IMG/VR virus record: IMGVR_UViG_3300017991_000049
Coordinates: 128,001-192,000 of that record
Reading direction: 5' to 3' (one strand)
Length of the DNA: 64,000 nt
Source of the DNA: a virus
Shown here: positions 1,001-59,490 of the stretch, piece after piece
How positions within the stretch are numbered: position 1 is the first letter of the stretch
How the letters are laid out: every line of letters starts with the position of its first letter
Notes under the pieces: generated by a model
What the model saw: the letters and a program-made list of their open reading frames with translations, nothing else
Databases searched by the model: none
Told to the model about the DNA's origin: nothing
Made by a program: the position numbers and the translations under genes

Positions 1001-1016
1001 TTGATCACATGATCAA
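1001..1016 (-). promoter_or_regulatory. Conserved 16-bp inverted repeat TTGATCA-N2-TGATCAA (copy 1)
   Basis: The plus strand reads ttgatcacatgatcaa. It belongs to a motif family of at least 10 copies and sits in an intergenic spacer. Confidence 0.45.
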
Positions 1017-1018
1017 AG

Positions 1019-1228
1019 TTAGACTACCGTCACGTTCTCCGCCTTGGGCCGTCCGCCCTTGCCCTCTCCCTCGGTGAAGTCGACCTGCTGGCCCTCGATG
1101 AGCGCATCAAAGTCCGACTTCTGGGGGAGCCCTGAACAGTGAAAGAATATGTCGGATCCGCCGGCGTCCGGCTGGATGAATCCAAAACCACGCTCCATCA
1201 CCAACTTCTTGATGGTGCCTCTTGCCAT
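1019..1228 (-). CDS. Cold-shock protein (CspA family)
   Basis: The 69-aa product starts 'MARGTIKKLVMERGFGFIQPD', with the RNP1-like GFGFI motif. An AGGAGAAG ribosome-binding site lies upstream. Confidence 0.85.
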   Translation of the reverse strand: MARGTIKKLVMERGFGFIQPDAGGSDIFFHCSGLPQKSDFDALIEGQQVDFTEGEGKGGRPKAENVTVV

Positions 1229-1266
1229 CTTCTTCTCCTAACGCTATCTAACGTGTTGTGCTGCGC

Positions 1267-1569
1267 TTAGTTAAGAATCGCGTACAGATCGGATTCCTTA
1301 GCCAGCACGTAATCAACTCCGTCAAGTGTAACGGTTTCCGCGTACGCTGAGAAGAGCACGCGGCTACCTACTGTCACCTGCTTGCAGTCGATTCCGACCG
1401 CTACAGCGGTGCCCGTCTGCGGCTTCTCGGTCGAGCCCTCGGGCAGTGTAATGCCACCAGGCGACATCGTTTCCCGCGGATCGGGCGTGATCAGCACGCG
1501 CTCTCCAATCGGCTTGCAGTCCACAGGATTGCACTTACACTTGTCATCACAAGCACATCCACTAGCCAT
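1267..1569 (-). CDS. GroES-like co-chaperonin with Cys-rich N-terminal extension
   Basis: The C-terminal two thirds carry GroES hallmarks: 'ITLPEGSTEKPQTGTAVAVG' and 'VLFSAYAETVTLDGVDYVLAKESDLYAILN'. The likely start at 1569 gives 'MASGCACDDKCKCNPVDCKPIG'. Confidence 0.6.
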   Translation of the reverse strand: MASGCACDDKCKCNPVDCKPIGERVLITPDPRETMSPGGITLPEGSTEKPQTGTAVAVGIDCKQVTVGSRVLFSAYAETVTLDGVDYVLAKESDLYAILN

Positions 1570-1571
1570 CT

Positions 1572-2453
1572 CTACTCTCCTTTGTGGTGGAAGACCTCTT
1601 CCATAGGTGCCCAGACTTCGCCTGGGGGTAATTCGCTGACGGGCTGCTGCAACGGTGTGCATAGCTTCCACCAGCGCTGTGTTTCCTCGTCCGCAGCCAT
1701 CTTGGCCATGTCAGCCTCGTAGTCGTCGCCGACGTACTCGTAGTAGCTGAACAGGTAATCGTTCCCATCCGGCAGACGCGCCGCAAAGATCGAGTAGTTG
1801 CGGATGTTGCACTCCTCGATCTTACTCAGAACGGTTGCCCACACTTCGGCATGCAGCCGCCGATACTCGGCAAGCTTGCCCGGCGTGACCTGCACGACCA
1901 TGCCGTAGCGGTTTGCAAGGCCCTTAGGCCAGATCGACTGTGCTAGGCTGCACCGCAGCTCGTCGACATCGAATACGACGTTGACGCCGAACACACGCCC
2001 CTGCACCAGGAAACCCCTGCGTGTCACCCACTCAACCTCGACCACTGCACGGTTCTCTGGGATCTCTGGTACCTTTTCATCGCCGTATGCGCGTGCTATG
2101 CGCTTGAATACAGGCGACAGGATGCAGAAGCCCTTGTTAAGGTCCGACACGCTTATGGTGCGCCCTTCTGGCTCAGCTGCGAATACCAGCAGGTCGGGGT
2201 GAGCATCCAGTACGATGCAGCGCTTCTCCGTGTCAACCTGGCGGTCGAGTTCGATCACGATATCGGGGTCGTCGCCAAAGTCCCACGGCAAGAACATCCG
2301 TACGCGGCTTTCCTTGTCGGTGAACGCCATGGGTAGCCCGGTGACACCCTCCGCCTCGATTGCCGCGGCCACGTTGGGCCGGCGCGGGCGCAGCCAGTTC
2401 ATAAACTCCGGCGTGATCTTGTATACATCGGTCGGCATCTTTGTACCTCGCAA
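1572..2453 (-). CDS. Protein with C-terminal L-rhamnose mutarotase (RhaM)-like domain
   Basis: The C-terminus reads 'NIRNYSIF...YLFSYYEYVGDDYEADMAKMAADEETQRWW', which matches the RhaM/DUF718 pattern. The N-terminal ~150 aa are unknown. An alternative start lies at 2438. Confidence 0.45.
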   Translation of the reverse strand: MRGTKMPTDVYKITPEFMNWLRPRRPNVAAAIEAEGVTGLPMAFTDKESRVRMFLPWDFGDDPDIVIELDRQVDTEKRCIVLDAHPDLLVFAAEPEGRTISVSDLNKGFCILSPVFKRIARAYGDEKVPEIPENRAVVEVEWVTRRGFLVQGRVFGVNVVFDVDELRCSLAQSIWPKGLANRYGMVVQVTPGKLAEYRRLHAEVWATVLSKIEECNIRNYSIFAARLPDGNDYLFSYYEYVGDDYEADMAKMAADEETQRWWKLCTPLQQPVSELPPGEVWAPMEEVFHHKGE

Positions 2454-2474
2454 CTACAAACTAAAGTGCGACTT

Positions 2475-2900
2475 TCACTCGTCGCCCAGTAGCTCCTCCC
2501 ATTTGTCAATACGACGTACGTCACTGTCGTCGTGGTATGTGCTGGACTCGTAGGCCCACGTGTCGTGTTCGGCGCTCAGCCGATGCCAGTCGCCAGGATG
2601 CAGCATGATCGACCAGCCGGGCTGCAGCCTAGCGATCTGCAATGCCACCATCGAGTGGATGCCGGTGCGCATCAGCTGTTCTGGGTCGCCCTGCAAATAC
2701 TCTACGACCAAACAGCCCGATTCGCAAGTAATTACCTCGGCCTTGATCGGATGCTTGTGAATGCTCGACTTCTTGCCCGCCTTGACGAACAGCGTCTTCT
2801 GGCACAGGTTGTGATTGACGTCATTGAGATGCCACGACTCGTAGCCCCAATCCTTCGGCACAAACTTCGCGGTTTGCACGGGAATGACTTCAGCTGCCAT
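2475..2900 (-). CDS. Cupin-domain protein (sugar isomerase/epimerase-like)
   Basis: The product has 'PKDWGYESW' and a later 'HPGDWHRL' His-containing cupin motif. A strong GAGGAGGAGG ribosome-binding site lies upstream. Confidence 0.45.
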   Translation of the reverse strand: MAAEVIPVQTAKFVPKDWGYESWHLNDVNHNLCQKTLFVKAGKKSSIHKHPIKAEVITCESGCLVVEYLQGDPEQLMRTGIHSMVALQIARLQPGWSIMLHPGDWHRLSAEHDTWAYESSTYHDDSDVRRIDKWEELLGDE

Positions 2901-3216
2901 CTTCCTCTTCCTCCTCCTCGGGGTCGCCGTATATCTGTTTAACGTCGGTCTTGAACTCAGTCTTACAGTGTGCGCAGGTCACAATGCAAGGGGCCATGAC
3001 CGGAAAACCCTCGTCGGGCTCGATATCGAGCGCGTGGTACACGAGGTTTTCCTCAATGAGCGAGCGGTAAGGCGGCATGATCGCACAGACGAAGTTCTGC
3101 CGTCCACACTCGTCACAATCCCACGCAAACGCGGGGTGTAGTTCGACTTCGATCACACCAGTAGCCCTGCACAGGTCAATATGATTAAGAGCGCCGCGCC
3201 GATGCCTGCTATCCAC
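2890..3216 (-). CDS. Small Cys-rich, acidic-tailed protein
   Basis: The product has CxxC-type pairs ('WDCDECG', 'CAHCK') and a poly-Glu C-terminus. It overlaps the start of the cupin gene. Confidence 0.3.
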   Translation of the reverse strand: MDSRHRRGALNHIDLCRATGVIEVELHPAFAWDCDECGRQNFVCAIMPPYRSLIEENLVYHALDIEPDEGFPVMAPCIVTCAHCKTEFKTDVKQIYGDPEEEEEEDGS

Positions 3217-3256
3217 ATCGCAATGGCGAATTCGCTTGGAAACAGATCGTTCATGG

Positions 3257-3907
3257 TTACTTAGGCGGCTTGGCGGCGCGTTCGACAGCCAAGCAGACCT
3301 CTCCGTCTTTCTCGATGAGTGTGTTCATGTCGTCGAACGGGATATACGCTCGGCCGTTTTTGCCCCAGTTTTGGCCCCATGAGTTCTTGATCCGGAACAG
3401 CCCGCGCTCCTTGGATACGCCAGTGACGAGGTAGGCATGCCCGCCGTAGTTTGGCCCTGTGGCCGACAGGACAGCGTCGGCGCCTGGCCGATCCATGCCC
3501 TTGTACCAGTTGGTGCCCACAACGACCGGTCCGCGCTCCAGCACGGCGTCGAGCAGCGTGTCCACGTCCCAGGCCCACTCGTATCGGTCGATCAGGCCGA
3601 GCATCTTGAGCACCTTGGCGCCTGCACGCACCGACGTGCCGTCGTAGTTGGTGCCCTTCCACTCGTCGTACTTCTTGCAGATCGTGTATAGGCCGTCGGG
3701 GTTGAGCCAGTGGCGGATCGGCGCGCTGGCCAGCCAGTGCGACCATGCAAAGCCCACACAATGCGGGGTGGCCTTCTGGTCCTGCCAGCAGCGATGATCC
3801 TGCCAGAAGCGATAGACGCGTTCGCTCGCTGTGCGTGGGATGCGGAATCGTCTGTCGCGGGCGTCGGGCTTGTAGCGCCGACCGTAGTTACGCTTGGGCA
3901 TTGTCAT
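3257..3907 (-). CDS. Papain-like (C1 family) cysteine peptidase
   Basis: The active-site Cys sits in 'HCVGFAWSHW', the His in 'GGHAYLVTG' and the Asn/Trp in 'NSWGQNWGKNGRAYIPF'. An AAGGAG ribosome-binding site lies upstream. Confidence 0.65.
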   Translation of the reverse strand: MTMPKRNYGRRYKPDARDRRFRIPRTASERVYRFWQDHRCWQDQKATPHCVGFAWSHWLASAPIRHWLNPDGLYTICKKYDEWKGTNYDGTSVRAGAKVLKMLGLIDRYEWAWDVDTLLDAVLERGPVVVGTNWYKGMDRPGADAVLSATGPNYGGHAYLVTGVSKERGLFRIKNSWGQNWGKNGRAYIPFDDMNTLIEKDGEVCLAVERAAKPPK

Positions 3908-4523
3908 GCTCCTTGTCTGGGTTTTGCCAACTTAGATCGTACCCGAAACGGCGATCGGCGTGAAACCAGGGCCTTACTGTGTTCCACAGCTCTGGCGTAT
4001 ACACCTGCCGAAAAGGTGGGTGCGCTGTATTGTAGTTGTCTTCCTGTATCGGCACCTGTGCGGCACCCACGTGCGCCATTACCTCATCGAATCCGCGCTG
4101 CATGTCCTCGAACGGTACGACGAATGACACGATCGTACGTCCGTACCCGGCGCCTGCCGATGCGCTCGTCCAATGCGCGTTGGGCAACCTGCCATAAGCA
4201 TGCGGCTGCAAGCCACGCACCCATTGTTCGAAGGATTTTCTACGAACACGTGAAGCCTGCATACGCTTTAAGAACCAGTAGAGCGACACCAAACGCGCCA
4301 TAGGGTGGCGCACGGTCGTAAACCACGTATAGTCACGACACTGCGCATACTGCGGCATCTTCTTGAACTCTGCCGGCGATGTGTGTTGATCAGCCTGACG
4401 CGGCCACCGCGGCATAAACCAACGCTCGGCGCCCAACTCGTCCTGCAGCGTCCGCCCTATCGACGAACTGGCGCAGCGCGGATTACAGAAGAACAACAGC
4501 TTGTAGTCGTGCGCAACTATCAC
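3888..4523 (-). CDS. Sulfotransferase-family protein
   Basis: The 5'-PSB-like motif is 'LLFFCNPRCASSSI' and the 3'-PB-like motif is 'TVRHPMARLVSLYWF'. Confidence 0.5.
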   Translation of the reverse strand: MIVAHDYKLLFFCNPRCASSSIGRTLQDELGAERWFMPRWPRQADQHTSPAEFKKMPQYAQCRDYTWFTTVRHPMARLVSLYWFLKRMQASRVRRKSFEQWVRGLQPHAYGRLPNAHWTSASAGAGYGRTIVSFVVPFEDMQRGFDEVMAHVGAAQVPIQEDNYNTAHPPFRQVYTPELWNTVRPWFHADRRFGYDLSWQNPDKEHDNAQA

Positions 4524-4855
4524 TGGACTAACACCTTGGAGATGTCGAGCAGTGCGTGACAGACGCGCAGGGCGTACTGGTTGGTATTGATCAGATCAGG
4601 CTCGAGGGCGTGGTCCTCTTCCAGCTCATCGTCGTCCTTCATGGTCTTGACGATCTCGTCCAGGTGCGCAATGCAGTCCTTGGCCGCACAGCTGCGGATG
4701 AACTCGCCATAGCGGGCAGTCAGCTCAGGTACGGTGGCGCCAGCGTCGCGCTCGGTGCGCAGCTTCGTGAGAAACTCCTCCAGCTCCTCGGCTGCTTCGC
4801 GCAACTCAACGGCCAGCTGGGACAACTGGTGCATGTATCGGACGCTACGTGACAT
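4520..4855 (-). CDS. Hypothetical acidic coiled-coil protein
   Basis: The ORF has a GGAGGAA ribosome-binding site upstream of the MSRSVRYM start. It packs tightly against its neighbours. Confidence 0.35.
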   Translation of the reverse strand: MSRSVRYMHQLSQLAVELREAAEELEEFLTKLRTERDAGATVPELTARYGEFIRSCAAKDCIAHLDEIVKTMKDDDELEEDHALEPDLINTNQYALRVCHALLDISKVLVQ

Positions 4856-5555
4856 GAAGTTCCTCCACGAGGTCTGCAACCTCTTCGCCAACTGGATAAC
4901 CGAACTCCTCGAACCATGCAAGGTACTTTTCTTCGATATGCTGGATATCGAAGTACGGCAGCCGCTGGTGGTAGCCGCCGATACCGACGTGCTGCCGGTG
5001 GCGCTGTTTGCCGTACAGGAAGCCCTGTTCCGGCTCGTATTCAGTGTTCAGCTCAGGTAGAATCTCGAGCTTGATTGCTATGTCTTCCAGCTGCCGATAG
5101 TCGAAGCTGTGGTCTGGGAACAGGTGCCTGGCCAGCATATCCAGCGTACCCACCTTGTTGACCATCATGCTCTCGAATCGGAGCCCCTTGGTCGCGCACG
5201 CCGTCCATTCGAACGCAGGCTCGACAAGCAGCGCCTCCATACCGACGAATACGCCATCGCAGAGTCCACGGCGCTTGTACGACTCGACTTCCAAGAGCTG
5301 GGCAGCTACAGCGCTGCAGAACGCGTCTCGCAGGTCGCGGACGATGGTGATGACTTTGTCGGCCGGGCGCCAGTCCACTGAGATGTCGTGGGTCTTGATA
5401 ACCTCGATGAACCCGGCCGGCGGCGGCTCATACGACTGAATATCGGTGGCATAGACGATGCCTGGGAACAGCTTCTCCGCCAGCATGCGCACGGCGTTGA
5501 ACGTCCACGTGGAGCCCGAACGGGCCATTGCCCCGACAACGATCCTGGTCATCAT
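4845..5555 (-). CDS. Sulfotransferase-domain protein
   Basis: The N-terminal 'GAMARSGSTW' is a PAPS-binding 5'-PSB motif of the PKSGTTW type. 'IVRDLRDAFCS' is 3'-PB-like. The start is ATGATG, directly after conserved motif copy 2. Confidence 0.6.
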   Translation of the reverse strand: MMTRIVVGAMARSGSTWTFNAVRMLAEKLFPGIVYATDIQSYEPPPAGFIEVIKTHDISVDWRPADKVITIVRDLRDAFCSAVAAQLLEVESYKRRGLCDGVFVGMEALLVEPAFEWTACATKGLRFESMMVNKVGTLDMLARHLFPDHSFDYRQLEDIAIKLEILPELNTEYEPEQGFLYGKQRHRQHVGIGGYHQRLPYFDIQHIEEKYLAWFEEFGYPVGEEVADLVEELHVT

Positions 5556-5556
5556 T

Positions 5557-5572
5557 TTGTTCCTGTGATCAA
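5557..5572 (-). promoter_or_regulatory. Conserved 16-bp motif (copy 2)
   Basis: The plus strand reads ttgttcctgtgatcaa. It fills the 19-nt gap between a stop codon and the ATGATG start. Confidence 0.45.
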
Positions 5573-5574
5573 AA

Positions 5575-6228
5575 TCAGCGTTCCATCATCTTCACCCGGT
5601 GCTGCGGGCCAGCAAGCGCCATCAGGTCGTCCTCCTGCTCTGGCGTAAGCCATTGCGGGATACCGACTAACGACGCGGCCACCAAGCTCTGCGCAGCGTC
5701 CTCGACGATCTGGCAGCGGAAGAACGCCTGTCGCATAGTCGTACCCAAGGCACAGAAGCCATGGTTGACCATGAAGATCGACTCGGCTTCCTTGGCAGCC
5801 TCCGCCATCCGGTCGGCTAGTTCCTGTGTGGTAGGCGTGACATACGGCACCGTGGCACGCCGGCCCAGATCATTGACTACCTCAGCGAACATCGCCCGTT
5901 GCGCCATATCTAGGCCTGAGCTGATCACGCCACACAGCCAAGGCGAATGTACGTGGAACACGGCGTGGATGTCTGGACGCGCTCGATAGATGGCCAGATG
6001 CATCTGGGTCTCAGACGTCGGCTTGTAGGTGCGCGTACGCGGCTTGCCGCTGTCGATCGCCACGGGGCACAGCTGACGTATGTGCAACTCACCCAGGGAC
6101 AACCCGCTCGGCGACAGCCAGGCGGTGTCGCCGTCGCGCGCACTGATGTTGCCGCCAGAGCCAACAACCAAGTGTGCGTCGTAGAGCTTCTTGCCGTATC
6201 GGACTAGGGCGTGTGTGATAGCACTCAT
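5575..6228 (-). CDS. Class II aldolase/adducin-family protein
   Basis: The product has 'GSGGNISARDGD', 'HVHSPW' and 'NHGFCALG'. The start at 6228 gives a TAATG overlap with the upstream stop codon. Confidence 0.6.
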   Translation of the reverse strand: MSAITHALVRYGKKLYDAHLVVGSGGNISARDGDTAWLSPSGLSLGELHIRQLCPVAIDSGKPRTRTYKPTSETQMHLAIYRARPDIHAVFHVHSPWLCGVISSGLDMAQRAMFAEVVNDLGRRATVPYVTPTTQELADRMAEAAKEAESIFMVNHGFCALGTTMRQAFFRCQIVEDAAQSLVAASLVGIPQWLTPEQEDDLMALAGPQHRVKMMER

Positions 6229-6989
6229 TAGCAATAGTTCTCGTACTGCAGGCCACCAGGAATTTCCACGATGGCCGACTGTTCGATCACGTGGCACCAG
6301 GAGAAGAGTTCGATCATGTAGGCTTCCTTCTTCACGTGGCAGTGCAGGCCGTCCACAGCGAGTTCCAGCGACACAGGAACGTCCTTGTGCATCATGCGGA
6401 TCTCGTGGACCGGTCCCATCGTAGAGCAGGCCAGCGCAATCATTACGCGCCGCTCGTGTGTGTTATCGAAGGACGCCTCGTCCCAGTCCCACGTCCATTT
6501 GGGCGACACGATGCGCCGCGGCATGTGCGGTAGGCCGCCAGCAGGGAACGGTCGCGGCTCGCACCAGCGAGGTAGCGCATCCACCATGGCGTAGCGCATG
6601 CCAACGGACAGCAGGGAGCTGAAATGCTCGTCATTCGCTGCCTGGTCTACCAACCAGCCCAGCGGATGCTTAGGCTCAGGCAGCCCGTCGAGCTTCTCTC
6701 CGCGGGACATGTGCATGCTAAGCGGTATCGTAGAGAACGGTACTGCCACAGCGCGCGTCCCCGTGGCTATGCCGTGCTTCTTCAGCACCTTGGCGTACTC
6801 GAGGATCTGCGTGGCGACCATGTCCGGTACGTCCGCAGTCTTGTCCGACTTGAGCTGGGACGCCATGCGCTCCTGTTCGGTCTTCATCAGTGCCTGCTCG
6901 GTTTCCATGTCACAGCCGTTGGCTGCCATCAGCGTGGACTGAGAGATCAGGCCGGCGCCTGCCAGCCCTAGAAAGCTTCTGCGTTTCAT
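6228..6989 (-). CDS. Tat-signal secreted protein of unknown function
   Basis: The N-terminus reads 'MKRRSFLGLAGAGLISQSTLMAANG', which contains the twin-arginine RRxFLG motif. Confidence 0.5.
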   Translation of the reverse strand: MKRRSFLGLAGAGLISQSTLMAANGCDMETEQALMKTEQERMASQLKSDKTADVPDMVATQILEYAKVLKKHGIATGTRAVAVPFSTIPLSMHMSRGEKLDGLPEPKHPLGWLVDQAANDEHFSSLLSVGMRYAMVDALPRWCEPRPFPAGGLPHMPRRIVSPKWTWDWDEASFDNTHERRVMIALACSTMGPVHEIRMMHKDVPVSLELAVDGLHCHVKKEAYMIELFSWCHVIEQSAIVEIPGGLQYENYC

Positions 6990-7024
6990 CGGTCCGCTCC
7001 AAATGGGTAGGTTTCACTCTAAGC

Positions 7025-19510: not shown

Positions 19511-20698
19511 TTAGTTGGTCAGACGCTCCAGCCAATTTTGATCAGCTGAACAAGATTCGGCTGCTTTCCTGTGCCCTGCCAGCACATTGGTACTCAGTTT
19601 GCCCTGTGGGTACTTTTTCTGGAGCCAGTCGAGCATACCCAGCTCGCCGCCCTGTGTGAGGAACATCAGCTTCTTGTCGCCGGCTGTACGCTGGTGGAAG
19701 TCTACGCCCAGGTCGCCTCGATCCTTCACGGTGAGGTCGCCACAGTTGTAGTCGGCCAGCTCGGCATACTTGTCCATGGCCACCTTACCAGCCATGCCGT
19801 TGAAACCGCCCACTCCCACTCCTTTACCCAAAGCCCCAGTGGCGATCGGGAAGCCCAGGCCGCTGGCGCTGCCTACACCCATATGGGCCATTGAAAAGTC
19901 CCCTGGAGCCCCTTGCCAGCTCTGCGGTTGCTGCTGTTGTACAGGCATCGGGGCCTCGTGTTTCTCCATACCGGCGAGGTTCTGCCCGGCCGCGGCCATC
20001 ACTCTTGGATCGTCGGACGGAGCAACCGTAGGTGCTTGCTGTGCTGGCACTTGGGCCACGCCAGGGGGCATAGCGATGGATGGCCGCGCTGATTTTTCAA
20101 GGCTTCGCGTCCCCAGCTCGGAGGGTGCCGACGGGGGCGCATCCGCAGTAATCCCCTCTTTTGGGAACACAGAGGTAGCCACAACGGCTGCATCCACGGC
20201 CTTTTTGATGCCACTGATAGCAGCGACCATGCGCGCGGTTTGGACATCATCAGGTAAGAAATCACAGAGTGCTATCGGTGCTGCCACTCCCGACGCAGCC
20301 TTGTCGCAGCCCCCAGACTCCATCACTTCGAGCTTGTCGTAGTATTTTCTGTCCTCTTGTAGGTGATCTTTGGCGATCTCCTCGGCCAGCTCCTCGTCGT
20401 TGACATGCTCCATCTCCACTTCTTCGCCCTTGTCAAGCTGGTCCTCTGGGTATGCGGAGTCGGGTTTGCCGTCAGCCAAACCACCAGTCAGCCGATCGGG
20501 ACCAGAGGCCATTTTGCCCACGATAGCGTGCATCCAGGGGGCGTACGCCTCCTTCTTGCGCCCCTTTTTCTTAGCGCGCTCAGGTAGGTCTTTGCCCTTG
20601 GACTCCTCGTTCCATTCGTCCACGTCAACGCCCTCAGCCTCAAGCTCGGCCTTGTTGGCATTGAAGTAACGCCGCTGAGCGTCGCTAGCGTATGGCAT
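19511..20698 (-). CDS. Hypothetical protein (possible virion or scaffold protein)
   Basis: The product has an acidic N-terminal third and a Gly/Met-rich C-terminus. A TAGGAG ribosome-binding site lies before MPYASDAQ. Confidence 0.4.
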   Translation of the reverse strand: MPYASDAQRRYFNANKAELEAEGVDVDEWNEESKGKDLPERAKKKGRKKEAYAPWMHAIVGKMASGPDRLTGGLADGKPDSAYPEDQLDKGEEVEMEHVNDEELAEEIAKDHLQEDRKYYDKLEVMESGGCDKAASGVAAPIALCDFLPDDVQTARMVAAISGIKKAVDAAVVATSVFPKEGITADAPPSAPSELGTRSLEKSARPSIAMPPGVAQVPAQQAPTVAPSDDPRVMAAAGQNLAGMEKHEAPMPVQQQQPQSWQGAPGDFSMAHMGVGSASGLGFPIATGALGKGVGVGGFNGMAGKVAMDKYAELADYNCGDLTVKDRGDLGVDFHQRTAGDKKLMFLTQGGELGMLDWLQKKYPQGKLSTNVLAGHRKAAESCSADQNWLERLTN

Positions 20699-20790
20699 CG
20701 TGCCGCTCCTAGAAGGTTCCAATCCGTTGTTCCACGCCACTCACTAGTATGGCGCATCTACACAGGGCTGGCAATGCGTGTCTGATAGCT

Positions 20791-20815
20791 AAAGAAAAGG
20801 CCCCAAAGTGGGGCC
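20791..20815 (-). terminator. Rho-independent terminator
   Basis: The sense strand reads GGCCCCACTTTGGGGCC followed by TTTTCTTT. Confidence 0.5.
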
Positions 20816-20857
20816 TAGATTAGTTCAGATGATCGGCTAGCATGGTTGGCTTCTTGC

Positions 20858-21532: not shown

Positions 21533-21552
21533 CCTATCCTCCTTTCAAATCT

Positions 21553-21568
21553 TGTTCATGTGATCAAA
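21553..21568 (-). promoter_or_regulatory. Conserved 16-bp motif (copy 3)
   Basis: The sense strand reads TTGATCACATGAACAA, followed by GATTTGAAAGGAG and then the ATG. Confidence 0.5.
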
Positions 21569-21591
21569 AAGAAGGGCGCCCGAAGGCGCCC
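21566..21591 (-). terminator. Rho-independent terminator
   Basis: The sense strand reads GGGCGCC-TTCG-GGCGCCC followed by TTCTTTTT. Confidence 0.5.
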
Positions 21592-21623
21592 CAGGTCAAA
21601 GGTCACCAGGCAACGCCTGCTCG

Positions 21624-21986: not shown

Positions 21987-22006
21987 TGGAAAGCTCCTTT
22001 CAAATC

Positions 22007-22022
22007 TTGTTCATGTGATCAA
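22007..22022 (-). promoter_or_regulatory. Conserved 16-bp motif (copy 4)
   Basis: The context is identical to copy 3, an exact duplication of terminator plus motif plus ribosome-binding site. Confidence 0.5.
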
Positions 22023-22043
22023 AAAGGGCGCCCGAAGGCGCCC
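22021..22043 (-). terminator. Rho-independent terminator
   Basis: The hairpin is GGGCGCC-TTCG-GGCGCCC followed by a T-run. Confidence 0.5.
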
Positions 22044-22054
22044 CAGGTCAAAGG

Positions 22055-22630: not shown

Positions 22631-22663
22631 GGGGTTGCTCCTTTCAAGAGCGGGTTAAAGAAA

Positions 22664-24336: not shown

Positions 24337-24354
24337 CGTTCCTCCTTTTGAACT

Positions 24355-24370
24355 TTGTTCATGTGATCAA
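24355..24370 (-). promoter_or_regulatory. Conserved 16-bp motif (copy 5)
   Basis: The sense strand reads TTGATCACATGAACAA. Confidence 0.5.
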
Positions 24371-25230
24371 GATTCGTCCTCTGCGGCCTCCTCTTCGCGC
24401 AACTTGCGCAGTCTGCGGTGTTGTTTCTGTCGCTCCGCAACAGTGGGCTGAGAACCGAATATCCTCCGCTTCCGCGGGGGTGGCGGTTCGGCACCGGGCT
24501 TGTCGCTCGAATCGCTCAAGCTGCTTCGAGCTATGAGCTTCGTGCGGGTGGAATCCTCAGGCGCGATAAACCAGTCGCGCATCCAGCGACACAGCTTGGC
24601 CATCTGCTTGTCCTGGCCCTTGCCCATACGTGAGCCGATATTGGTATCTTTGCCGTATTGCATGCCCGGCACCTCGATACCAACAGGTATGCCGATCATA
24701 GCCATCAGGGCGACAAACATTCCGAGGGTGTTGTAGTCGTAGCCCTCCTGCTTGAACAGCACGTCGTGCAACCGTACTTCGTAGTATTTGCCCGCCCTGG
24801 AGAATCCACTGGTAGGCGGTGCCCAACGTAGACGGCGACGCACTTCCTTAGAGAGATTCACAAACCACATGCTATCGAAGGTCATCTCGACAGCAGGGTG
24901 TTTGGGTTCCAGCTCGGCCTGCAGCCTTGCCTGCTCTTTGAGTAGCCGCGTTTTGTCGGCGGTTATCTGCGTGAGCTTCTGGGTCAGCTTGCCCAGCTCA
25001 GCTTCCAGCTCAGCGATACGGGCATTCGTCGGAGCCAGCGCAGCAACTGCTTTCTTGGCACGCTCATCGGCCTCGGCTGCCTGCGTGCGCAGCTCCGCGT
25101 TCGTACGGCGTAACTGCGCCTGTAAGTCTTGTACCTTCGTTAGATACGACATGGCCGTCTCGTCGTGCGCAACGTACTTTTGTAGATCGGCCATAGCCGC
25201 CTTAGCTTCTCGTCTGAGTTTCGACGCCAT
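24367..25230 (-). CDS. Coiled-coil protein
   Basis: The N-terminal ~110 aa show heptad-like Ala/Leu/Gln/Glu periodicity. The C-terminus is basic. Confidence 0.4.
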   Translation of the reverse strand: MASKLRREAKAAMADLQKYVAHDETAMSYLTKVQDLQAQLRRTNAELRTQAAEADERAKKAVAALAPTNARIAELEAELGKLTQKLTQITADKTRLLKEQARLQAELEPKHPAVEMTFDSMWFVNLSKEVRRRLRWAPPTSGFSRAGKYYEVRLHDVLFKQEGYDYNTLGMFVALMAMIGIPVGIEVPGMQYGKDTNIGSRMGKGQDKQMAKLCRWMRDWFIAPEDSTRTKLIARSSLSDSSDKPGAEPPPPRKRRIFGSQPTVAERQKQHRRLRKLREEEAAEDES

Positions 25231-25498: not shown

Positions 25499-25569
25499 AG
25501 TAAGGTTCCTTGTAAAGAGGGAGGGGTAAGCTACTGGTCCAACATATTAGACTGCCGCGTTTTCGCATT

Positions 25570-25585
25570 TTGTTCACATGATCAA
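25570..25585 (-). promoter_or_regulatory. Conserved 16-bp motif (copy 6)
   Basis: The sense strand reads TTGATCATGTGAACAA and is preceded by terminator 25605..25628. Confidence 0.45.
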
Positions 25586-25604
25586 GATAGCTGATGGCTA
25601 AAAG

Positions 25605-25628
25605 AAAGGCCCAGAATAGGGCCCTTCC
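25605..25628 (-). terminator. Rho-independent terminator
   Basis: The hairpin is GGCCC-TATTCT-GGGCC followed by TTTCTTTT. Confidence 0.45.
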
Positions 25629-25770: not shown

Positions 25771-27120
25771 TTATGCCGTAATCTCCTCGGGGTCGTGCAT
25801 CTTGTCTGGTGCAGTCTCCGCGGGGAGAGGCATCTGCTCTGAGATGTCAGCCCGGAACGTCAACGCCTCTGTTCCCGGCTTCTTCTCCGGCTTGACCTGT
25901 TCGTGGAAACGCCGCATGGCGCTCGTAGTCAGGCCGTAGCGCCGCTTGTTGTCCTTCTCGGTGTTCCTGGTGATCTTACGCAGCCGATTGGCCAACACTG
26001 CGGCATTCGCCTCGTATGTGTCAGCCTGCGCTTCGGCGTTGTTCATCAGACACTCGATGAAGCGTTCGATCGTTGCCGCCGGATAGTGGTACTGTGCACG
26101 CACCAGAGCGGCGCGAACAGGTGCCACACTCACATGCTTTTCGTGAGTGAACCGGTTGAACACAGAACAGGTCTCGCCGAAAGCCTCAGCGTGATCCTCA
26201 AAGAAGCACAACTGTGCCGGCTTGGACGGAGTTTCGCTCGGATGACGCATGCCGCGCATCGTCCAAGTGATGATGGGCGAAGAGCCATTCAAGTCGATCT
26301 TGCAGAAGCCTGCAGCGTTCTCAACCGTACGCTGCCGCCCAAGGTCCATCATCCGCACTGCCGCTTCGCTGAGCCCGACGAAAACGAGCGTCCTGAACGC
26401 AACGTCCTCTTCGATGCCGGCACGCAGCCGCGTCTGCCCATCGCCCAAGAACGGCTCCGGGAAGACGACGAACGAAATACCTTGTGGGGTATCCGCCCAA
26501 TTGTTGCTCGCCATGTCACTGGCGAACTGGCGCATGGTCGAATGCCCGATGGGCCGGTTGCGGCTGTTGTAGTGCTCCAGCCAATCGCGCCCGATAGTGG
26601 GAGCGACAGTCATCGGCGCTACCATCATGCCGAGACCGCACGGGACCAGCCGGGGCAGTCCCAGCTGCTTACCGAACGACTGCATCTGACGCTCTTCCGC
26701 CACCGTGATCTCGGGATCGAAATCCAGATCCAGCTCGATACGCTTGCCGCGCATCGGTGCCGGTAGCGTTGCCGGCTTGAACGCCTTGGTCGCCACAACC
26801 GATTCGGCAGACTTCAGACCCTTCAGGATGTCCATGACATCTTCTAGGTCCGTACGCACGCCGACAGGCTGCATCGTGTACAACATGCGGCAGTTCTCGC
26901 TCTTCTGTGGCTTAATGAAGAGCTCAATGCCGCTACCATCTTCGGCGAGACCCTGAACAAGCACCGGCTTGCCCTTGGCTGCGGGTGCCGGCGCCACGGG
27001 CGTCAACAACCACTTGCCGTCGATAGACTTCGCACGCAGGGCATTTTCGAGTCTTGCACGCGCTTGGCGGTGCACTCGCACGGATCCCACGCCATCCGTT
27101 AGGGTGAGTGAAAGTGACAT
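25771..27120 (-). CDS. Hypothetical protein, possibly ParB-like nuclease domain
   Basis: I chose the start at 27120 (MSLSLTLT) because a GGAGGAGG ribosome-binding site precedes it. 'FLGDGQTRLRAG' loosely resembles the ParB-N motif 'DGHHRLAA'. Confidence 0.35.
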   Translation of the reverse strand: MSLSLTLTDGVGSVRVHRQARARLENALRAKSIDGKWLLTPVAPAPAAKGKPVLVQGLAEDGSGIELFIKPQKSENCRMLYTMQPVGVRTDLEDVMDILKGLKSAESVVATKAFKPATLPAPMRGKRIELDLDFDPEITVAEERQMQSFGKQLGLPRLVPCGLGMMVAPMTVAPTIGRDWLEHYNSRNRPIGHSTMRQFASDMASNNWADTPQGISFVVFPEPFLGDGQTRLRAGIEEDVAFRTLVFVGLSEAAVRMMDLGRQRTVENAAGFCKIDLNGSSPIITWTMRGMRHPSETPSKPAQLCFFEDHAEAFGETCSVFNRFTHEKHVSVAPVRAALVRAQYHYPAATIERFIECLMNNAEAQADTYEANAAVLANRLRKITRNTEKDNKRRYGLTTSAMRRFHEQVKPEKKPGTEALTFRADISEQMPLPAETAPDKMHDPEEITA

Positions 27121-27198
27121 ACTTTCCTCCTCCTCTATTGGACAATACCCGGGCATAACGACTAGCCCGTACATCTTCTAATGCCGTGTTTCAGCACT

Positions 27199-27214
27199 TT
27201 GTTCACATGATCAA
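27199..27214 (-). promoter_or_regulatory. Conserved 16-bp motif (copy 7)
   Basis: The sense strand reads TTGATCATGTGAACAA and is preceded by terminator 27230..27272. Confidence 0.45.
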
Positions 27215-27229
27215 GATCGGCTGAGGGCT

Positions 27230-27272
27230 AAAGAAAAGAGGCAGGGCCCTGGGCTTGCGCCCAGAGCCCTGC
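27230..27272 (-). terminator. Rho-independent terminator
   Basis: A 13-bp stem, CAGGGCTCTGGGC-GCAA-GCCCAGGGCCCTG, is followed by CTCTTTTCTTT. Confidence 0.5.
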
Positions 27273-33816: not shown

Positions 33817-33820
33817 GATT

Positions 33821-33836
33821 TTGTTCTTGTGATCAA
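33821..33836 (-). promoter_or_regulatory. Conserved 16-bp motif (copy 8)
   Basis: The sense strand reads TTGATCACAAGAACAA and contains the upstream gene's TGA stop codon. Confidence 0.45.
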
Positions 33837-34366
33837 AGTTCGCCGCCGTTGCGAGTCTCGTCCTCCTTCGGACAAGCGCCGCTTATTGGGCATTCGTCGC
33901 AATCACACTCGCCGTCCTCAAGCATCTGGGCGATAGGCCCCAGCTGCGTGGTTGGCTGCATAGCCGGTGATGGCGGTTGCGTCGGCGGGCAGAAGTGTTT
34001 CTGGTAAGCCAGCGCATACTCTGCGCTTACCTCCATCAACTCCATTGTACGGACATCGCGCCTGATGCCAGTCGGCGAGTAGCGCCCACCGTAGGGCACC
34101 ATAGCAAATGGCCCCGTGTTTTGCACATGGGGTACGTCGCCGATGCGGTCAAGCGGTTCCAGGATGATCCATGGCGGGCAGTACACCTCGATGCGGAATA
34201 CACGCCCGTGGAGGCTCTTATCCTCCTCTAGCTGCGGACCATCATCACCATACATAGCAGGCGGAAACTGCATTGATGGCGGGTTGAACGGACCCTTTGT
34301 GACGGTCACCATCTTTCCTGGGGTGTAGTCGTCAGGTTTTAGTGTGCGCACGTTTGGTACCTCCAT
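33833..34366 (-). CDS. Hypothetical protein
   Basis: The ORF is well defined. Its C-terminus reads 'CDCDECPISGACP'. Confidence 0.4.
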   Translation of the reverse strand: MEVPNVRTLKPDDYTPGKMVTVTKGPFNPPSMQFPPAMYGDDGPQLEEDKSLHGRVFRIEVYCPPWIILEPLDRIGDVPHVQNTGPFAMVPYGGRYSPTGIRRDVRTMELMEVSAEYALAYQKHFCPPTQPPSPAMQPTTQLGPIAQMLEDGECDCDECPISGACPKEDETRNGGEL

Positions 34367-34407
34367 GCAACATTATGACAGAATCCGGGCAGAGGCGTAA
34401 TAGACGC

Positions 34408-44281: not shown

Positions 44282-44378
44282 TCATTAGGGTCCTCCCTCT
44301 ACAGCAGTCAACAGAAAAAGGCGCCAAGACCACATAGTCTTGACACCTTATAATGCCGCGTTCTGCAGTAGCGTAAAG

Positions 44379-46951: not shown

Positions 46952-46963
46952 GCCTCCTCAATC

Positions 46964-46979
46964 TTGATCATGAGATCAA
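46964..46979 (-). promoter_or_regulatory. Conserved 16-bp motif (copy 9)
   Basis: The sense strand reads TTGATCTCATGATCAA. Confidence 0.45.
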
Positions 46980-46986
46980 ATTCCGT

Positions 46987-56582: not shown

Positions 56583-57387
56583 CCAGTACGTCGAAGAGTG
56601 TTGGGTGGTTACGGATACGCGGTGCGGGCGCTTCGGGCGGTTCGCACCTGTAAGTTACACCGATCGGCTGTTGAGAAAAACCGCGCCGGGACGCTGTTGA
56701 GCATTTTCCGCTCTCGTTGGCGTTGATGGCCAACCCCGTAGTGAACTTGCCCATCTTGTAGCCATGCTGATGGCACAGGGCGCCAAGCATCACGTCGCCG
56801 CCGTTGTGTTCGAAGTCCTTCGGCGGCCAGTCATGCCGTTTCAGGATATCCGTCCGGATGCACCACCACCCGCCTGTGATGAACGAAATACGGGCATGCT
56901 GCGGCACCGGCTTGCCATTGAACCACGGCTGATCCCTGATGTACTGCGCCTGATGCCCCCGAAGGTTCATCAGGTACGGCGCGCCCACCATGGCATGATT
57001 CTGCATCTTGTCGTCAAGTATGCCGAACCACAGTTGCGGGTCTCGATTGCTGTCCAATAGCCACGAGTCATCGTCGAACCAGATGGTGTACTTCGTATCG
57101 ATGCCTGGGTGCCCGTCGTTCAACGTCGCATCTGGTGTACCGTGGAACATGCGCCGCATCAGCGGATACTTGTAGTACGGCTGCTCTCCACGATACACGT
57201 CGGTGATCGGGACATATATGTGCCGGCGCAGCACAGTCTCAGTATCCCTGCAGACGTTGTTCAACCCGACACGCATGTCGAAGTAGTCGGCCCACCCCGC
57301 ACGACCGAGCGACTCTAAGAGCCGCTCGGCCAAGTCGGGATGTTTGCCGTAGAACAGAGCACAAATTGTGAACTGCTTGTTTGCCAT
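56563..57387 (-). CDS. GT-A fold glycosyltransferase (DxD-type)
   Basis: The DxD motif sits in 'TIWFDDDSWLL'. The N-terminus reads 'FTICALFYG'. Confidence 0.45.
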   Translation of the reverse strand: MANKQFTICALFYGKHPDLAERLLESLGRAGWADYFDMRVGLNNVCRDTETVLRRHIYVPITDVYRGEQPYYKYPLMRRMFHGTPDATLNDGHPGIDTKYTIWFDDDSWLLDSNRDPQLWFGILDDKMQNHAMVGAPYLMNLRGHQAQYIRDQPWFNGKPVPQHARISFITGGWWCIRTDILKRHDWPPKDFEHNGGDVMLGALCHQHGYKMGKFTTGLAINANESGKCSTASRRGFSQQPIGVTYRCEPPEAPAPRIRNHPTLFDVLDGKHVP

Positions 57388-58361
57388 TAGCGATTGACGC
57401 CTACACGGCCCTTGCGTTTCTTGGCTGCCTCTCGCTTCTTTTTGGCCGCAGCGCGCTTCTCACGTGCCTTGCGGTTGCGCTCCTCGTTGAGCGCGACGCT
57501 GTCGTCCTCAGGCTCCTCGCCCGATTCCGTGGCAGCGTCCTCCAGCTCGGCAGCGTTCTGCTCAGCCATTTCGGCCTGCGCAGCCATACGCGCCTCGATG
57601 TCTGCCTCGGTGCCCGCCAGGACCTGAGCCATGGCCGCAGCACGCGTCTGCATGCCTACGACCTGCTCCTTGGTCTCGCGCACGGCGGTGAGCAGCTTGT
57701 CGTTCAGCTTATCGGCCGGGATCTCGTGGATCGTCTTGTGCAGGTCGAAGTTGTCACCAGTCCACGCGTCGTCGTAGTTGGTATTGAACTTCATGGCCTG
57801 CGACTGCACATGCGTCAGACAGCCGCGTGCGGACTGAGGAACCTTGACCTTCGGCTTGTTGGTGCCGCGCTTGGTGCGCTCGCACAGATCACGTACCTTG
57901 GCCCACAGCTCCTCTGCCGTCCACGCCTGTTCGAGGCACGCGGCAGCAAGCTGCATACGGGTATCGAGATCGCCCACGCCGGCAAGGTAAACCAGATGCG
58001 ACCAGCTCAGCATGTTGCCAGCTTCGCCCTGCATCTTGATGTATTCGGTGAACGCCTTCTTCGTGCCGAACGCCTTGCAGACGTTCATGGAGTTACGAAG
58101 CTGGGCGTCCGTCTTGAAGCCCAAGCCCACAGCGAGGCGCGTCAGCACCTTGTTGCCATAGAGCTCTTTCTTACTGGCGGCCTTCCTGTGGACGGCAGCC
58201 ACTTTCTGTCCCAAATCCCAGTACCACAAACTGCTGTCCTTCGTGCGCTGCTGGATGTAGGTATGCAGCTCCTTGAAGGCGGCCTTCTCGGCGTCGGTGT
58301 AGGTGGACTGGGCCTGCAGAGGAGTGTAGTCCTCTATCTTCGCAGGAAGCGTTGTACTCAT
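57387..58361 (-). CDS. Hypothetical protein with Lys/Arg-rich C-terminus
   Basis: The C-terminus reads 'KAREKRAAAKKKREAAKKRKGRVGVNR'. Confidence 0.4.
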   Translation of the reverse strand: MSTTLPAKIEDYTPLQAQSTYTDAEKAAFKELHTYIQQRTKDSSLWYWDLGQKVAAVHRKAASKKELYGNKVLTRLAVGLGFKTDAQLRNSMNVCKAFGTKKAFTEYIKMQGEAGNMLSWSHLVYLAGVGDLDTRMQLAAACLEQAWTAEELWAKVRDLCERTKRGTNKPKVKVPQSARGCLTHVQSQAMKFNTNYDDAWTGDNFDLHKTIHEIPADKLNDKLLTAVRETKEQVVGMQTRAAAMAQVLAGTEADIEARMAAQAEMAEQNAAELEDAATESGEEPEDDSVALNEERNRKAREKRAAAKKKREAAKKRKGRVGVNR

Positions 58362-58369
58362 TTCAACTC

Positions 58370-59473
58370 CTAGAGCTGAACTCTCTTGGCGAGAACGTCG
58401 AACGCCGTGCGCTCTAACTTCTCGCGTATTTCAGGATATTGGCCATCGGCGTCACGCATCAGCATGATCACCACGTCGCGTACCTGGCGCTTGGCGATGT
58501 CGGCAGCTGTTACACTATTGGGTACGAACGTACCCTCAACTCCCATGAAAATCGCCTTCCGCAGCACGTCTTCTGCAAGACTCTTGTCGATGTACTTGGT
58601 CAGCTTGGTTTGCATCCGCGTGCGCTTCGCCTTGTTCAGCTTATCGTCCGCGTTCAGCAAATCAAGTGGCTTAGCCATAACTTCGGCTGCTTGTTTGGCC
58701 ACAAGCGCTGTGGACTCCCAGCTATGAAGCACGCCCGCGAGGGTCGAACCTAGTCGCTTGATGAAGTCTTTGCCGGAGTGCGCCAGATGGCGCAGCTTGT
58801 TCATACACCGTAACGTATGCCCTATCTGTAGGATGGTCGCTCCACGGACGCCACATTCACCGGCTTCGCTGTTGGAGAAATAGGCTCCTCCATACAGCGG
58901 TCCGTCGTCGAGTTCGACGAGTGGTTCTTCCGTCAGGAACGTGACCGCCATGCGGCGGCCAACCAACAGTCCTTCATAGAACTGCATGGGCACTTCGTGC
59001 GAGTCCATCATCTCCTTGACCGCCTCCAGTAGCTGGTGGTTGGGCAGGAGCTGATAGCGTGGGCCAACAATACCGTCGACAACGCCTGATTTATGGTTCT
59101 GGATTATGTCCCGGCCACAAAGGCCATCGGGAGCCCTGAAACGCAGCTCAAGGCAGTCATTGATGATCCCGATCGCTTGGTGTATCGAGGTCGCCGAATC
59201 GTATGCATTGGCGCTGCGGTGTACTCCGGCGATGTCCGCCGCGAGTGACCACAGGCCTTTGGATACGTGACTGCAGAGCTGCCTTATAGCCAGCGGAGAG
59301 AAAGCCGCGCCGTTCGCAAGCAGACGAAAATGTATGGAATCGCCGTCAAGCTTGACAGAATCGACGTGGCTTATCAGCGTCCGCGTGGTGTGCTGGTCAA
59401 TGTCGCGCAGCAGCTCGATGAAGGCATCGAACTCGTGCGCTAGGAATTCATGTCTCTCTGGGATCGCCAGCAT
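58370..59473 (-). CDS. Hypothetical protein
   Basis: The ATG lies 1 nt downstream of motif copy 10. Confidence 0.4.
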   Translation of the reverse strand: MLAIPERHEFLAHEFDAFIELLRDIDQHTTRTLISHVDSVKLDGDSIHFRLLANGAAFSPLAIRQLCSHVSKGLWSLAADIAGVHRSANAYDSATSIHQAIGIINDCLELRFRAPDGLCGRDIIQNHKSGVVDGIVGPRYQLLPNHQLLEAVKEMMDSHEVPMQFYEGLLVGRRMAVTFLTEEPLVELDDGPLYGGAYFSNSEAGECGVRGATILQIGHTLRCMNKLRHLAHSGKDFIKRLGSTLAGVLHSWESTALVAKQAAEVMAKPLDLLNADDKLNKAKRTRMQTKLTKYIDKSLAEDVLRKAIFMGVEGTFVPNSVTAADIAKRQVRDVVIMLMRDADGQYPEIREKLERTAFDVLAKRVQL

Positions 59474-59474
59474 T

Positions 59475-59490
59475 TTGATCTCATGATCAA
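59475..59490 (-). promoter_or_regulatory. Conserved 16-bp motif (copy 10)
   Basis: The sense strand reads TTGATCATGAGATCAA. Confidence 0.45.

Follow-up and report, generated by a model that had tools for sequence, protein, structure and literature searches.

We analysed a 64-kb stretch of viral DNA (the window: positions 128,001 to 192,000 of IMG/VR record IMGVR_UViG_3300017991_000049) and a 22-bp palindrome that is dispersed in it in 11 copies, nearly all of them outside genes. The window derives from a jumbo phage of an uncultivated group. Its exact proteins were found on a 226.5-kb metagenomic contig (ENA ERZ27256796 k141_2629452), of which it occupies approximately 112.7-176.7 kb in reverse complement, and a near-identical contig of 150.7 kb was found in a second sample; the contig is held by samples ERZ27256796 and ERZ27256790 of ENA. 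Polymorphism was uninformative because the strain variants are 99.8-100% identical. Searches of cultured phages with megablast and tblastn revealed no close relative and no nucleotide match; the 671-residue portal protein (38471-40486) is 26-27% identical to the portals of Vibrio phage D69 and Salmonella phage Arash.

All genes of the window lie on the minus strand, as judged from GC3 (the GC content of third codon positions) and from the structure of the open reading frames (ORFs). The genes recognised in this phage include replication and repair functions (a UDG-PolA polymerase, helicases, a UvsX-like recombinase, ThyX and a RuvC-like resolvase), a peptide deformylase, Cpn10, a cold-shock protein and a large cluster of sugar, sulfotransferase and glycosyltransferase genes. 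No Rfam family and no tRNA was found in the window.

We searched the window for the palindrome. The exact pattern TTGATCANNTGAWCAA matched 8 times versus 0.01 expected; when up to two mismatches were allowed, 23 strand-matches were obtained versus 0.41 expected, corresponding to 11 sites and a weak match at 12641. A position weight matrix built from the 11 sites separated them sharply from the background: the sites scored 33-39 bits while the next best score was 16 bits (128 kb, both strands counted), and base shuffles gave 0-2 matches at 10 bits or more. A sequence-only reading of this DNA had listed ten of the copies; its coordinates are right except for 21553, which is 21552, and it had missed the copy at 19538. 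The 11 sites, with the 16-bp core of each, are as follows.

Site 1: 998..1019, minus strand, core 1001-1016; TTGATCATGTGATCAA, a perfect palindrome, 2 nt past the stop of the cold-shock-domain gene and 116 nt ahead of the start of a GT15 glycosyltransferase gene.
Site 2: 5554..5575, minus strand, core 5557-5572; TTGATCACAGGAACAA, 2 nt past the stop of an aldolase-II gene, with the next ATG 1 nt after the core and no Shine-Dalgarno.
Site 3: 19535..19556, minus strand, core 19538-19553; TTGTTCAGCTGATCAA (coding strand), the only copy with reversed asymmetry, inside the last 14 codons of a DUF5661 gene and 41 nt ahead of the next start.
Site 4: 21549..21570, minus strand, core 21552-21567; TTGATCACATGAACAA, joined to a terminator T-run and followed by the Shine-Dalgarno AAAGGAGG, with the ATG 19 nt after the core.
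Site 5: 22004..22025, minus strand, core 22007-22022; in a 74-nt module of terminator, motif and Shine-Dalgarno that is 96% identical to the module of site 4, with the ATG 20 nt after the core.
Site 6: 24352..24373, minus strand, core 24355-24370; the TGA stop of a coiled-coil gene lies inside the motif, followed by a Shine-Dalgarno and an ATG 18 nt after the core.
Site 7: 25567..25588, minus strand, core 25570-25585; TTGATCATGTGAACAA, preceded by a terminator and the box TTTAGCCATCAG, 71 nt ahead of a gene for a 68-residue Cys/His-rich protein; its module is a paralogue of that of site 8.
Site 8: 27196..27217, minus strand, core 27199-27214; preceded by a terminator with a 14-bp stem and the box TTTAGCCCTCAG, 78 nt ahead of a DGQHR/ParB-like gene.
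Site 9: 33818..33839, minus strand, core 33821-33836; TTGATCACAAGAACAA; the motif takes in the upstream TGA stop, and a zinc-ribbon gene, itself followed by a terminator, begins with an ATG 4 nt after the core.
Site 10: 46961..46982, minus strand, core 46964-46979; TTGATCTCATGATCAA, 7 nt past a stop, with a GAGGAGG Shine-Dalgarno and the ATG 12 nt after the core.
Site 11: 59472..59493, minus strand, core 59475-59490; TTGATCATGAGATCAA, 3 nt past a stop, with the ATG 1 nt after the core.

Alignment of the sites on the coding (minus) strand showed that the conserved block is A(-2)-Y-Y-TTGATCA-Y-R-TGAWCAA-R-R-T(19). The sequence-only reading had described the core, TTGATCA-N2-TGAWCAA as read on this strand, as a 16-bp repeat. 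The element in fact extends over 22 bp and its flanks obey the same symmetry, A(-2) pairing with T(19) and YY with RR; no conserved information was detected beyond these 22 bp. Positions 17-18 are purines in every site. At the centre stand the bases ACAT or, in reverse complement, ATGT, and both orientations occur regardless of gene direction. The only consistent asymmetry resides at position 13, which is A in seven sites (right half TGAACAA). The claim that all copies point the same way as the genes therefore holds for these seven sites; the copy at 19538 is reversed, and those at 1001, 46964 and 59475 are fully symmetric.

Is a sequence or a structure conserved? An element that acts as an RNA or single-stranded DNA hairpin, in processing, in translation control or by extrusion of an N4-type hairpin promoter, would be palindromic, lie in 5' leaders and abut start codons, as the sites do, and the perfect copy at 1001 indeed folds at -9.6 kcal/mol. 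However, it is alone in folding well. Position 13 breaks the pairing in 7 of the 11 sites, and the folding energies of these majority-variant sites range only from -0.6 to -3.1 kcal/mol; at -0.6 kcal/mol (z-score +0.6), the two commonest variants do no better than shuffles. Moreover, the distance to the start codon varies from 1 to 116 nt, no site matches Rfam, and within a genome it is the sequence and not the pairing that is kept, with no site-specific compensation and with one relative, L031, combining unrelated halves. The conserved thing is the sequence, not the hairpin, and we regard a role as a hairpin as barely credible.

The left half always contains GATC, and the three symmetric copies carry two TGATCA sites. 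This could point to a Dam methylation-sensitive switch, as had been proposed, or to a restriction or homing target. The right half, however, reads GAAC in 7 of the 11 sites, and equivalents in relatives (the versions of L023 and L027 and several other sites, with TTATTCAC, TTCATCTC or TTGTTCAC) lack GATC altogether. GATC is not unusually frequent in the window either (419 observed versus 408 expected), nor are half-sites on their own more or less common than chance predicts. A role for the GATC as such is thus highly improbable.

Known bacterial boxes were also considered. FNR binds TTGAT-N4-ATCAA and CRP binds TGTGA-N6-TCACA. The element reads TTGAT-N6-ATCAA, with half-sites 2 bp further apart than in the FNR box, which was rejected; CRP, LexA and parS boxes were rejected on spacing or sequence.

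We then located the sites relative to genes, over the 43.9 kb of the window for which independent gene calls were available. Non-coding DNA makes up 7.6% of this region, yet nine of its ten sites are non-coding, apart from an overlapped stop codon (10 of 11 over the whole window). Five sites contain the upstream stop codon or begin 0-3 nt past it; the TGA inside TTGATCA at 33821, pointed out by the sequence-only reading, is found at 24355 as well. The terminators reported directly ahead of some copies are also present, and four sites (21552, 22007, 25570 and 27199) are fused to the T-run of such an intrinsic terminator:

21573..21592, minus strand: intrinsic terminator with the same stem as that at 22025..22044; its T-run enters site 4.
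22025..22044, minus strand: intrinsic terminator GGGGCGCC-TTCG-GGCGCCCT; its T-run enters site 5.
25606..25626 (approximate), minus strand: terminator-like hairpin AAGGGCCC-TATTC-TGGGCCTT with a T-run, upstream of site 7.
27241..27272, minus strand: intrinsic terminator with a 14-bp stem and a T-run, directly upstream of site 8.

On the downstream side, the distances from core to start codon are 1, 1, 4, 12, 18, 19, 20, 41, 71, 78 and 116 nt, which places seven sites 1-20 nt ahead of the next start codon. A Shine-Dalgarno is missing at the three sites nearest to a start (5557, 59475 and 33821), while most others have a strong AAGGAGG. The stop-to-ATG gaps that had been put at 1-5 nt are in reality 16-20 nt long and filled by the motif, 1-4 nt being the distance from motif to ATG. 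As an observation the leaderless-like arrangement is fair, and it is kept in relatives.

Two extra copies lie just outside the window. The copy at L155 3687-3709 is inside a conserved 222-residue ORF of the replication module (peptide WNFVLMN) and has orthologous counterparts at L160 398 and L161 723; in the phage of the window an in-frame ATG follows. The copy at L157 17989 spans codons 4-9 of a 133-residue gene.

A recurrent tail was seen after terminator hairpins, a T-run followed by TAGC(C/T)NTCAG (for example TCTTTAGCCCTCAG), at 20741-20857, 25586-25626, 27215-27290 and 31352-31477 of the window and, in related loci, at L023 ~20440-20465 and in L153 and L154. TCTTTA[GA] occurs 7 times on the coding strand versus once on the other. 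The box is kept in relatives, and at some sites it lies 3-7 nt ahead of the palindrome.

Is the element maintained in other phages? We compared the window with IMG/VR contigs (relatives of 133-162 kb) whose portals are 67-79% identical and whose syntenic genes are 30-77% identical to its own, and with others found through the UvsX-like protein. In these relatives the element recurs at the corresponding junctions:

Upstream of the g025 orthologue (junction of site 10), L025: TTGTTCACAGGAACAA.
Upstream of the g025 orthologue (junction of site 10), L029: TTGATCACGTGACCAA.
Upstream of the g025 orthologue (junction of site 10), L023: TTATTGCTGTGAATAA.
Upstream of the g044 orthologue, L029: TTTCATCGCGAGAACAAAAATG.
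Upstream of the g005 orthologue (junction of site 11), L160 and L161: motif, with the conserved N-terminus MLA.PE beginning 4 nt beyond it.
Upstream of the g005 orthologue (junction of site 11), L159: motif present.
Inside the 222-residue ORF, L160 and L161: motif present.
Flanking g056 on either side, L153 (79% identical): motif present.

The half-sites proved to be lineage-specific, and both sides change together: TTATTCAC is matched by GTGAATAA in L023 and TTCATCTC by AAGATGAA in L027. T1, T2, T5, C6 and their mirror positions are fixed in these two variants and in most other sites. We read such parallel change as the signature of a dimeric protein whose specificity would drift with its sites. 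Outside this group the element appears to be absent. A scan of viral contigs returned 22 single matches, all of them unrelated except L017, which is part of a relative's 153-kb contig; the matches listed from metagenome contigs were chance singletons, none homologous to the window. A text search of the literature for the motif sequence gave nothing relevant, and a related-locus search with g056 and g072 found none.

Conservation at orthologous junctions also bears on the idea that the copies are recombination scars or boundaries of shuffled gene cassettes that have no regulatory role. Duplication has clearly occurred around some sites (21539-21612 and 21994-22064 are 96% identical, and the modules at 25570 and 27199 form a second pair), and the gene content upstream of the g025 site differs among relatives. 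However, most copies share just the 22 bp and not their flanks, and copies are kept at junctions where the proteins are only 30-77% identical and the surrounding intergenic DNA has diverged. Scars are thus a very unlikely explanation. An integron attC or tyrosine-recombinase core site was rejected: no R'/R'' match was found, and directly repeated sites would delete genes.

Taken together, these results are best accounted for if the element is an operator for a phage-encoded homodimeric DNA-binding protein, which would gate initiation or read-through at unit boundaries. We give this reading a probability of about one half and rank it first, ahead of a self-contained phage promoter; of the functions proposed by the sequence-only reading, a dimeric-regulator operator best fits the 22-bp symmetry, the occurrence of ACAT/ATGT both ways and the parallel half-site change in relatives. 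Its near invariance, its confinement to gene boundaries and the lack of a stable hairpin in the majority variant argue in the same direction. Dispersed dyad-symmetric repeats of other phages have likewise been ascribed to dimeric regulators (PMC4351075). The protein would read two TTGATCA-type half-sites around a flexible YR centre. Because the sites abut a stop or terminator, are separated by no more than about 20 nt from the next ribosome-binding site or start at seven positions and cover a -35 position at two, the bound dimer would keep RNA polymerase from starting at the downstream gene or running into it, although occupancy may instead recruit the polymerase. At the two sites with a possible -35 element, 27199 and 25570, it would occlude the promoter. 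The long one-directional gene array would in this manner be split into separately controlled units, the operators acting as a genome-wide gate.

Several observations weigh against an operator. No helix-turn-helix, repressor or sigma family was detected among 80 ORFs of the window. The position 13 asymmetry is consistent (7 to 1 in the window), which a purely symmetric operator cannot explain. Genes with an ATG 1-4 nt past the motif and no Shine-Dalgarno are found both in the window and in relatives, and the missing Shine-Dalgarno would be most natural if transcripts started at the 3' edge of the motif. Finally, g066 and g067 are units of terminator, motif, Shine-Dalgarno, gene and terminator with no other candidate promoter, which favours a promoter. 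Against this last point, g065 is equally insulated by terminators yet lacks both the motif and a promoter. Polymerase must thus often read through, which weakens the argument that an insulated gene needs its own promoter. The neighbourhood of these genes evolves through local duplication of gene-plus-leader modules (g063-g066): the leader CTTTAACCCGCTCTTGAAAGGAGCAACCC is duplicated upstream of g065 and g064 (22631-22663 and 23198-23248, minus strand), and g063 and g066 are paralogues with 34% identity.

Could the element then be a promoter in its own right, specific to the phage and recognised by an RNA polymerase or sigma-like factor that the phage encodes? Transcripts would start at purines 17-18, giving leaderless mRNAs at 5557, 59475 and 33821 and short leaders elsewhere. 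The motif does follow terminators and abut Shine-Dalgarnos and start codons as a promoter might: four copies are joined to the T-runs of strong terminators, and single-gene units (g066, g067 and likewise g044 and the 68-residue gene) contain nothing else that is conserved ahead of the Shine-Dalgarno. Its information content is very high and bimodal, like that of T7-type or phiKZ-type promoters, and it is an AT-rich 22-mer within a genome of 59% GC. In L027, L031, L029 and L160 the motif is followed by AAAATG with no Shine-Dalgarno, as expected for leaderless RNA from the 3' edge; the close spacing to MLA.PE of g005 in L160 fits this expectation. A further gene, g043, seems leaderless too, from an extended -10 element, TGTCATAAT.

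On the other side, the two-fold symmetry that includes the flanks, the centre in either orientation and the three fully symmetric copies leave the direction of such a promoter undefined. No RNA polymerase, sigma or helix-turn-helix family was found in the 84 kb of the 226.5-kb contig that were read for gene families, and large ORFs showed no DxDGD motif. The g005 orthologue of L159 has no start codon other than one within the motif (positions 9-11), upstream of where transcription would begin; one copy lies inside a conserved ORF and another over codons 4-9 of a gene; and g065 does without the motif. The sequence fits neither the AR9 late consensus AACA-N6-T(A/G) nor the phiKZ TATG (PMC5312081). 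We therefore consider a self-contained promoter the second reading, unlikely on balance. A bolder version, in which the palindrome is the complete initiation signal of an unrecognised phage transcription system, appears doubtful: RNA synthesis would be initiated at the 3' edge by a dimeric factor or a non-canonical polymerase, yielding mRNAs with no leader or one of a few nucleotides, and its direction would come from position 13 and the adjoining terminator only.

A host-type promoter was also sought, that is, TTGACA-like -35 and TATAAT-like -10 hexamers with a spacing of 16-18 bp. No sigma-70 -10 or -35 partner occurs at a fixed distance from the motif, and a sigma-70 scan of 18-36 kb found 5 promoter-like sites versus 6.9 expected, none at motif sites. 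With TTGATC or TGAACA as the -35 and CAARRT as the -10, no arrangement fits all sites, and each start would fall inside g005, g044 or g085, whose N-termini are conserved. Activators of the P1 Lpa, Mu C, P2 Ogr and MerR types bind at least 22 nt upstream of the start. Such geometries were rejected since at three sites only about 9 nt separate the start codon from the centre of the dyad.

The window contains a second, sigma-70-like promoter class, CTTAAAAAC-N17-GGCA(A/T)TAT(AAGG), at ~27854 and ~31409 (window ~27825-27870 and 31380-31425, minus strand), and a related GGCATTAT promoter at ~44357 (44330-44370) with TTTACG instead of the CTTAAAAAC box. Weak -10-like sequences, GGCATTAG or GGCAGTCT, were found downstream of 27199 and 25570 only. 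At both, the right half-site sits exactly at the -35-like CTTAAAAAC position of the second class, and at site 8 it occupies the would-be -35 position for GGCATTAG. In the related locus L154 (1255-1295), the CTTAAAAAC class replaces the palindrome upstream of a 49%-identical g056 homologue, equally far from the terminator, and the distance from TTTAGC to GGCAWT is 40 nt there versus 41 nt in the window. The leader of the 27854 promoter copy contains a hairpin and T-run, a possible attenuator. At g043 (start 34366, minus strand; promoter 34367-34407), the arrangement is TTACGC-N17(ending TGT)-CATAAT with the -10 hexamer ending 5 nt before the ATG, so that this mRNA looks leaderless from its promoter spacing.

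We next consider which protein might bind the operator. One gene stands between two copies of the element:

25771..27120, minus strand: g056 (P0001), 449 residues, between sites 8 and 7; a speculative candidate binder.

A profile search with g056 recovered 7870 relatives at E<=1e-3, mostly 260-330 residues long and matching its C-terminal 270 residues. All 60 aligned family members fall in phrog_5931, a family with no assigned function, and share the consensus N..NR...YA.DM..G.W...Q.I.F...G.L.DGQHRL.A. Six of the 60 match TIGR03187 DGQHR (best E 1e-3), two match the PHROG entry 'ParB-like partition protein' and one matches Pfam DndB. From these similarities g056 is probably a remote protein of the ParB/Srx (DGQHR) superfamily. 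Its membership in this large DGQHR/ParB-like family led us to reject a capsid function, which would have implied a late promoter. P0001 itself matched nothing in Pfam, NCBIfam or PDB, its alignment to Spo0J with hhalign was not significant (0.1% and 2.5% probability), and its AlphaFold2 model is unusable, with a predicted local distance difference test score (pLDDT) of 38.

These properties raise a special case of the operator reading, that the sites are loading sites like parS or the KorB operators for a ParB-superfamily protein such as g056, which would nucleate at the palindromes and silence or organise nearby DNA. KorB acts from 12 dispersed palindromic operators, and chromosomal parS has the consensus TGTTNCACGTGAAACA, whose core equals TTCAYRTGAA of the TTGTTCA-type half-site. 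The two copies that bracket g056 lie inside paralogous modules of ~110 nt, and phrog_5931 has the N..NR...DGQHRL signature, with TIGR03187, ParB-like and DndB matches in a few of the 60 members. KorB of RK2, a ParB-family CTPase, represses plasmid transcription (PMC11790492). However, all family links of g056 are weak. The protein has DGQTR and not the GERRxR cytidine triphosphate (CTP)-binding motif, no palindrome adjoins its homologue in L154 (49% identity), and a distant homologue sits in a replication and not a partition module, between a Toprim primase and an MCM-like helicase. By eye, TTGTTCATGTGATCAA matches parS at only 10 of 16 positions, with a shared core TTCA..TGAA. ParB-like loading thus seems improbable.

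Other candidates for binding the operator lie in their own motif-headed units: the 68-residue Cys/His-rich basic protein (25292-25498), the zinc-ribbon protein g044 (33259-33816) and g067 (224 residues, 20858-21532, minus strand). The last 60 residues of g067 show a weak but consistent similarity to the C-terminal domain of RNA polymerase alpha subunits (Pfam RNA_pol_A_CTD, E 6e-4; some 12 alpha subunits in PDB, E 0.03-0.8). A homologue search with g067 returned only the protein itself and none outside this phage.

The genome has other unusual features. Its sugar-modifying gene cluster exceeds 15 kb (window 1-7000 and L157 10345-20210) and encodes a class II aldolase, a lyxose-isomerase-like cupin, a rhamnose mutarotase, GT15 and GT25 glycosyltransferases, a cytidylyltransferase and at least four sulfotransferases; the Cpn10 and cold-shock-domain genes adjoin it, a cargo that is unusual for a phage. 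Two big low-complexity proteins rich in Pro, Ala and Gly, of 873 and 483 residues (7141-9762 and 10687-12138, minus strand), may be internal virion or ejection proteins; the shorter one has tandem repeats NPRGPGFEAE(I/V)ARMDGMN. The UDG-PolA gene is intact on the contig of the window (1073 residues, L155 6691-9912, just past window coordinate 64000), while in the strain of the second sample an HNH endonuclease gene splits it into pieces of 990 and 122 residues (L156 8361-9441). In two relatives (L029 10351-11267 and L031 10225-11072), the portal gene is interrupted by ~0.85-0.9 kb, with tblastn pieces that overlap by ~15-24 residues; the interrupting DNA could be an intron or intein that carries a homing endonuclease.

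The element is most likely a phage-specific dispersed regulatory palindrome of an ordinary kind in a new, unstudied phage group. As it stands it is a good but unsurprising regulatory repeat. Its value lies in the setting: in a group that has no cultured member and hardly any annotated genes, a high-confidence cis-element is a rare handle on biology. The sites delimit transcription units, the 22-mer is a ready bait to identify the regulator by DNA affinity or DNA affinity purification sequencing (DAP-seq), and the lineage-specific half-site changes form a natural series for studying regulator-site co-evolution. Should the sites prove to be promoters of leaderless mRNAs or loading sites for a ParB-like clamp, they would represent a new transcription or silencing scheme in jumbo-phage biology.

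How does the element compare with known systems? In Cluster K mycobacteriophages, start-associated sequences are asymmetric; they include the ribosome-binding site and keep a fixed short distance to the start. They too are conserved motifs directly upstream of start codons in a subset of genes (PMC3203893), but here the start lies at 1-116 nt and the site is palindromic. The promoters of T7-class phages, AR9 and phiKZ are ~20-bp conserved motifs before genes of large lytic phages, often after terminators and with short leaders (PMC5312081). In these respects they resemble the element; unlike it, they are asymmetric and have a known polymerase gene, of which none was found here in the 84 kb read.

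The KorB operators of RK2 and the ParB-parS systems also consist of dispersed palindromic sites, of 13-16 bp, mostly promoter-proximal or intergenic, through which a dimeric ParB-family protein regulates many operons (PMC11790492). The element, however, has neither the parS nor the OB sequence, no ParA and no ParB with GERRxR and a helix-turn-helix was recognised, and the link to g056 is conjecture. N15 likewise has dispersed centromeres.

Closer in layout are the stoperators of Cluster A phages of the L5 and Bxb1 type, which are many genome-wide copies of one site for the immunity repressor of a temperate phage, in very short intergenic spaces and often touching stop or start codons; the protein bound to them is proposed to block elongation besides repressing promoters (PMC9283540, PMC6550527). 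Stoperators are asymmetric sites of 13-14 bp that are read by a monomer and strictly oriented, whereas the element is a 22-bp palindrome with asymmetry at position 13 only. Neither an integrase nor a repressor was encountered over the 84 kb read.

The nearest counterpart is a 17-bp dyad repeat, TGTTCGGNNNCCGAACA, of which genomes of Cluster O mycobacteriophages contain more than 30 copies each (PMC4351075). It differs from the element in sequence and spacing (7-3-7 versus 7-2-7 with symmetric flanks here), as well as in host and phage type, and roughly a third of the Cluster O repeats fall within genes, whereas 10 of the 11 copies here are non-coding and hug stops, terminators and starts. The Cluster O repeat has been ascribed to a dimeric DNA-binding protein, its function being unproven. 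Like the element, it is a short, near-invariant dispersed palindrome that is absent from unrelated genomes, has a variable centre in either orientation and places many of its copies in short intergenic gaps or at the 5' ends of genes.

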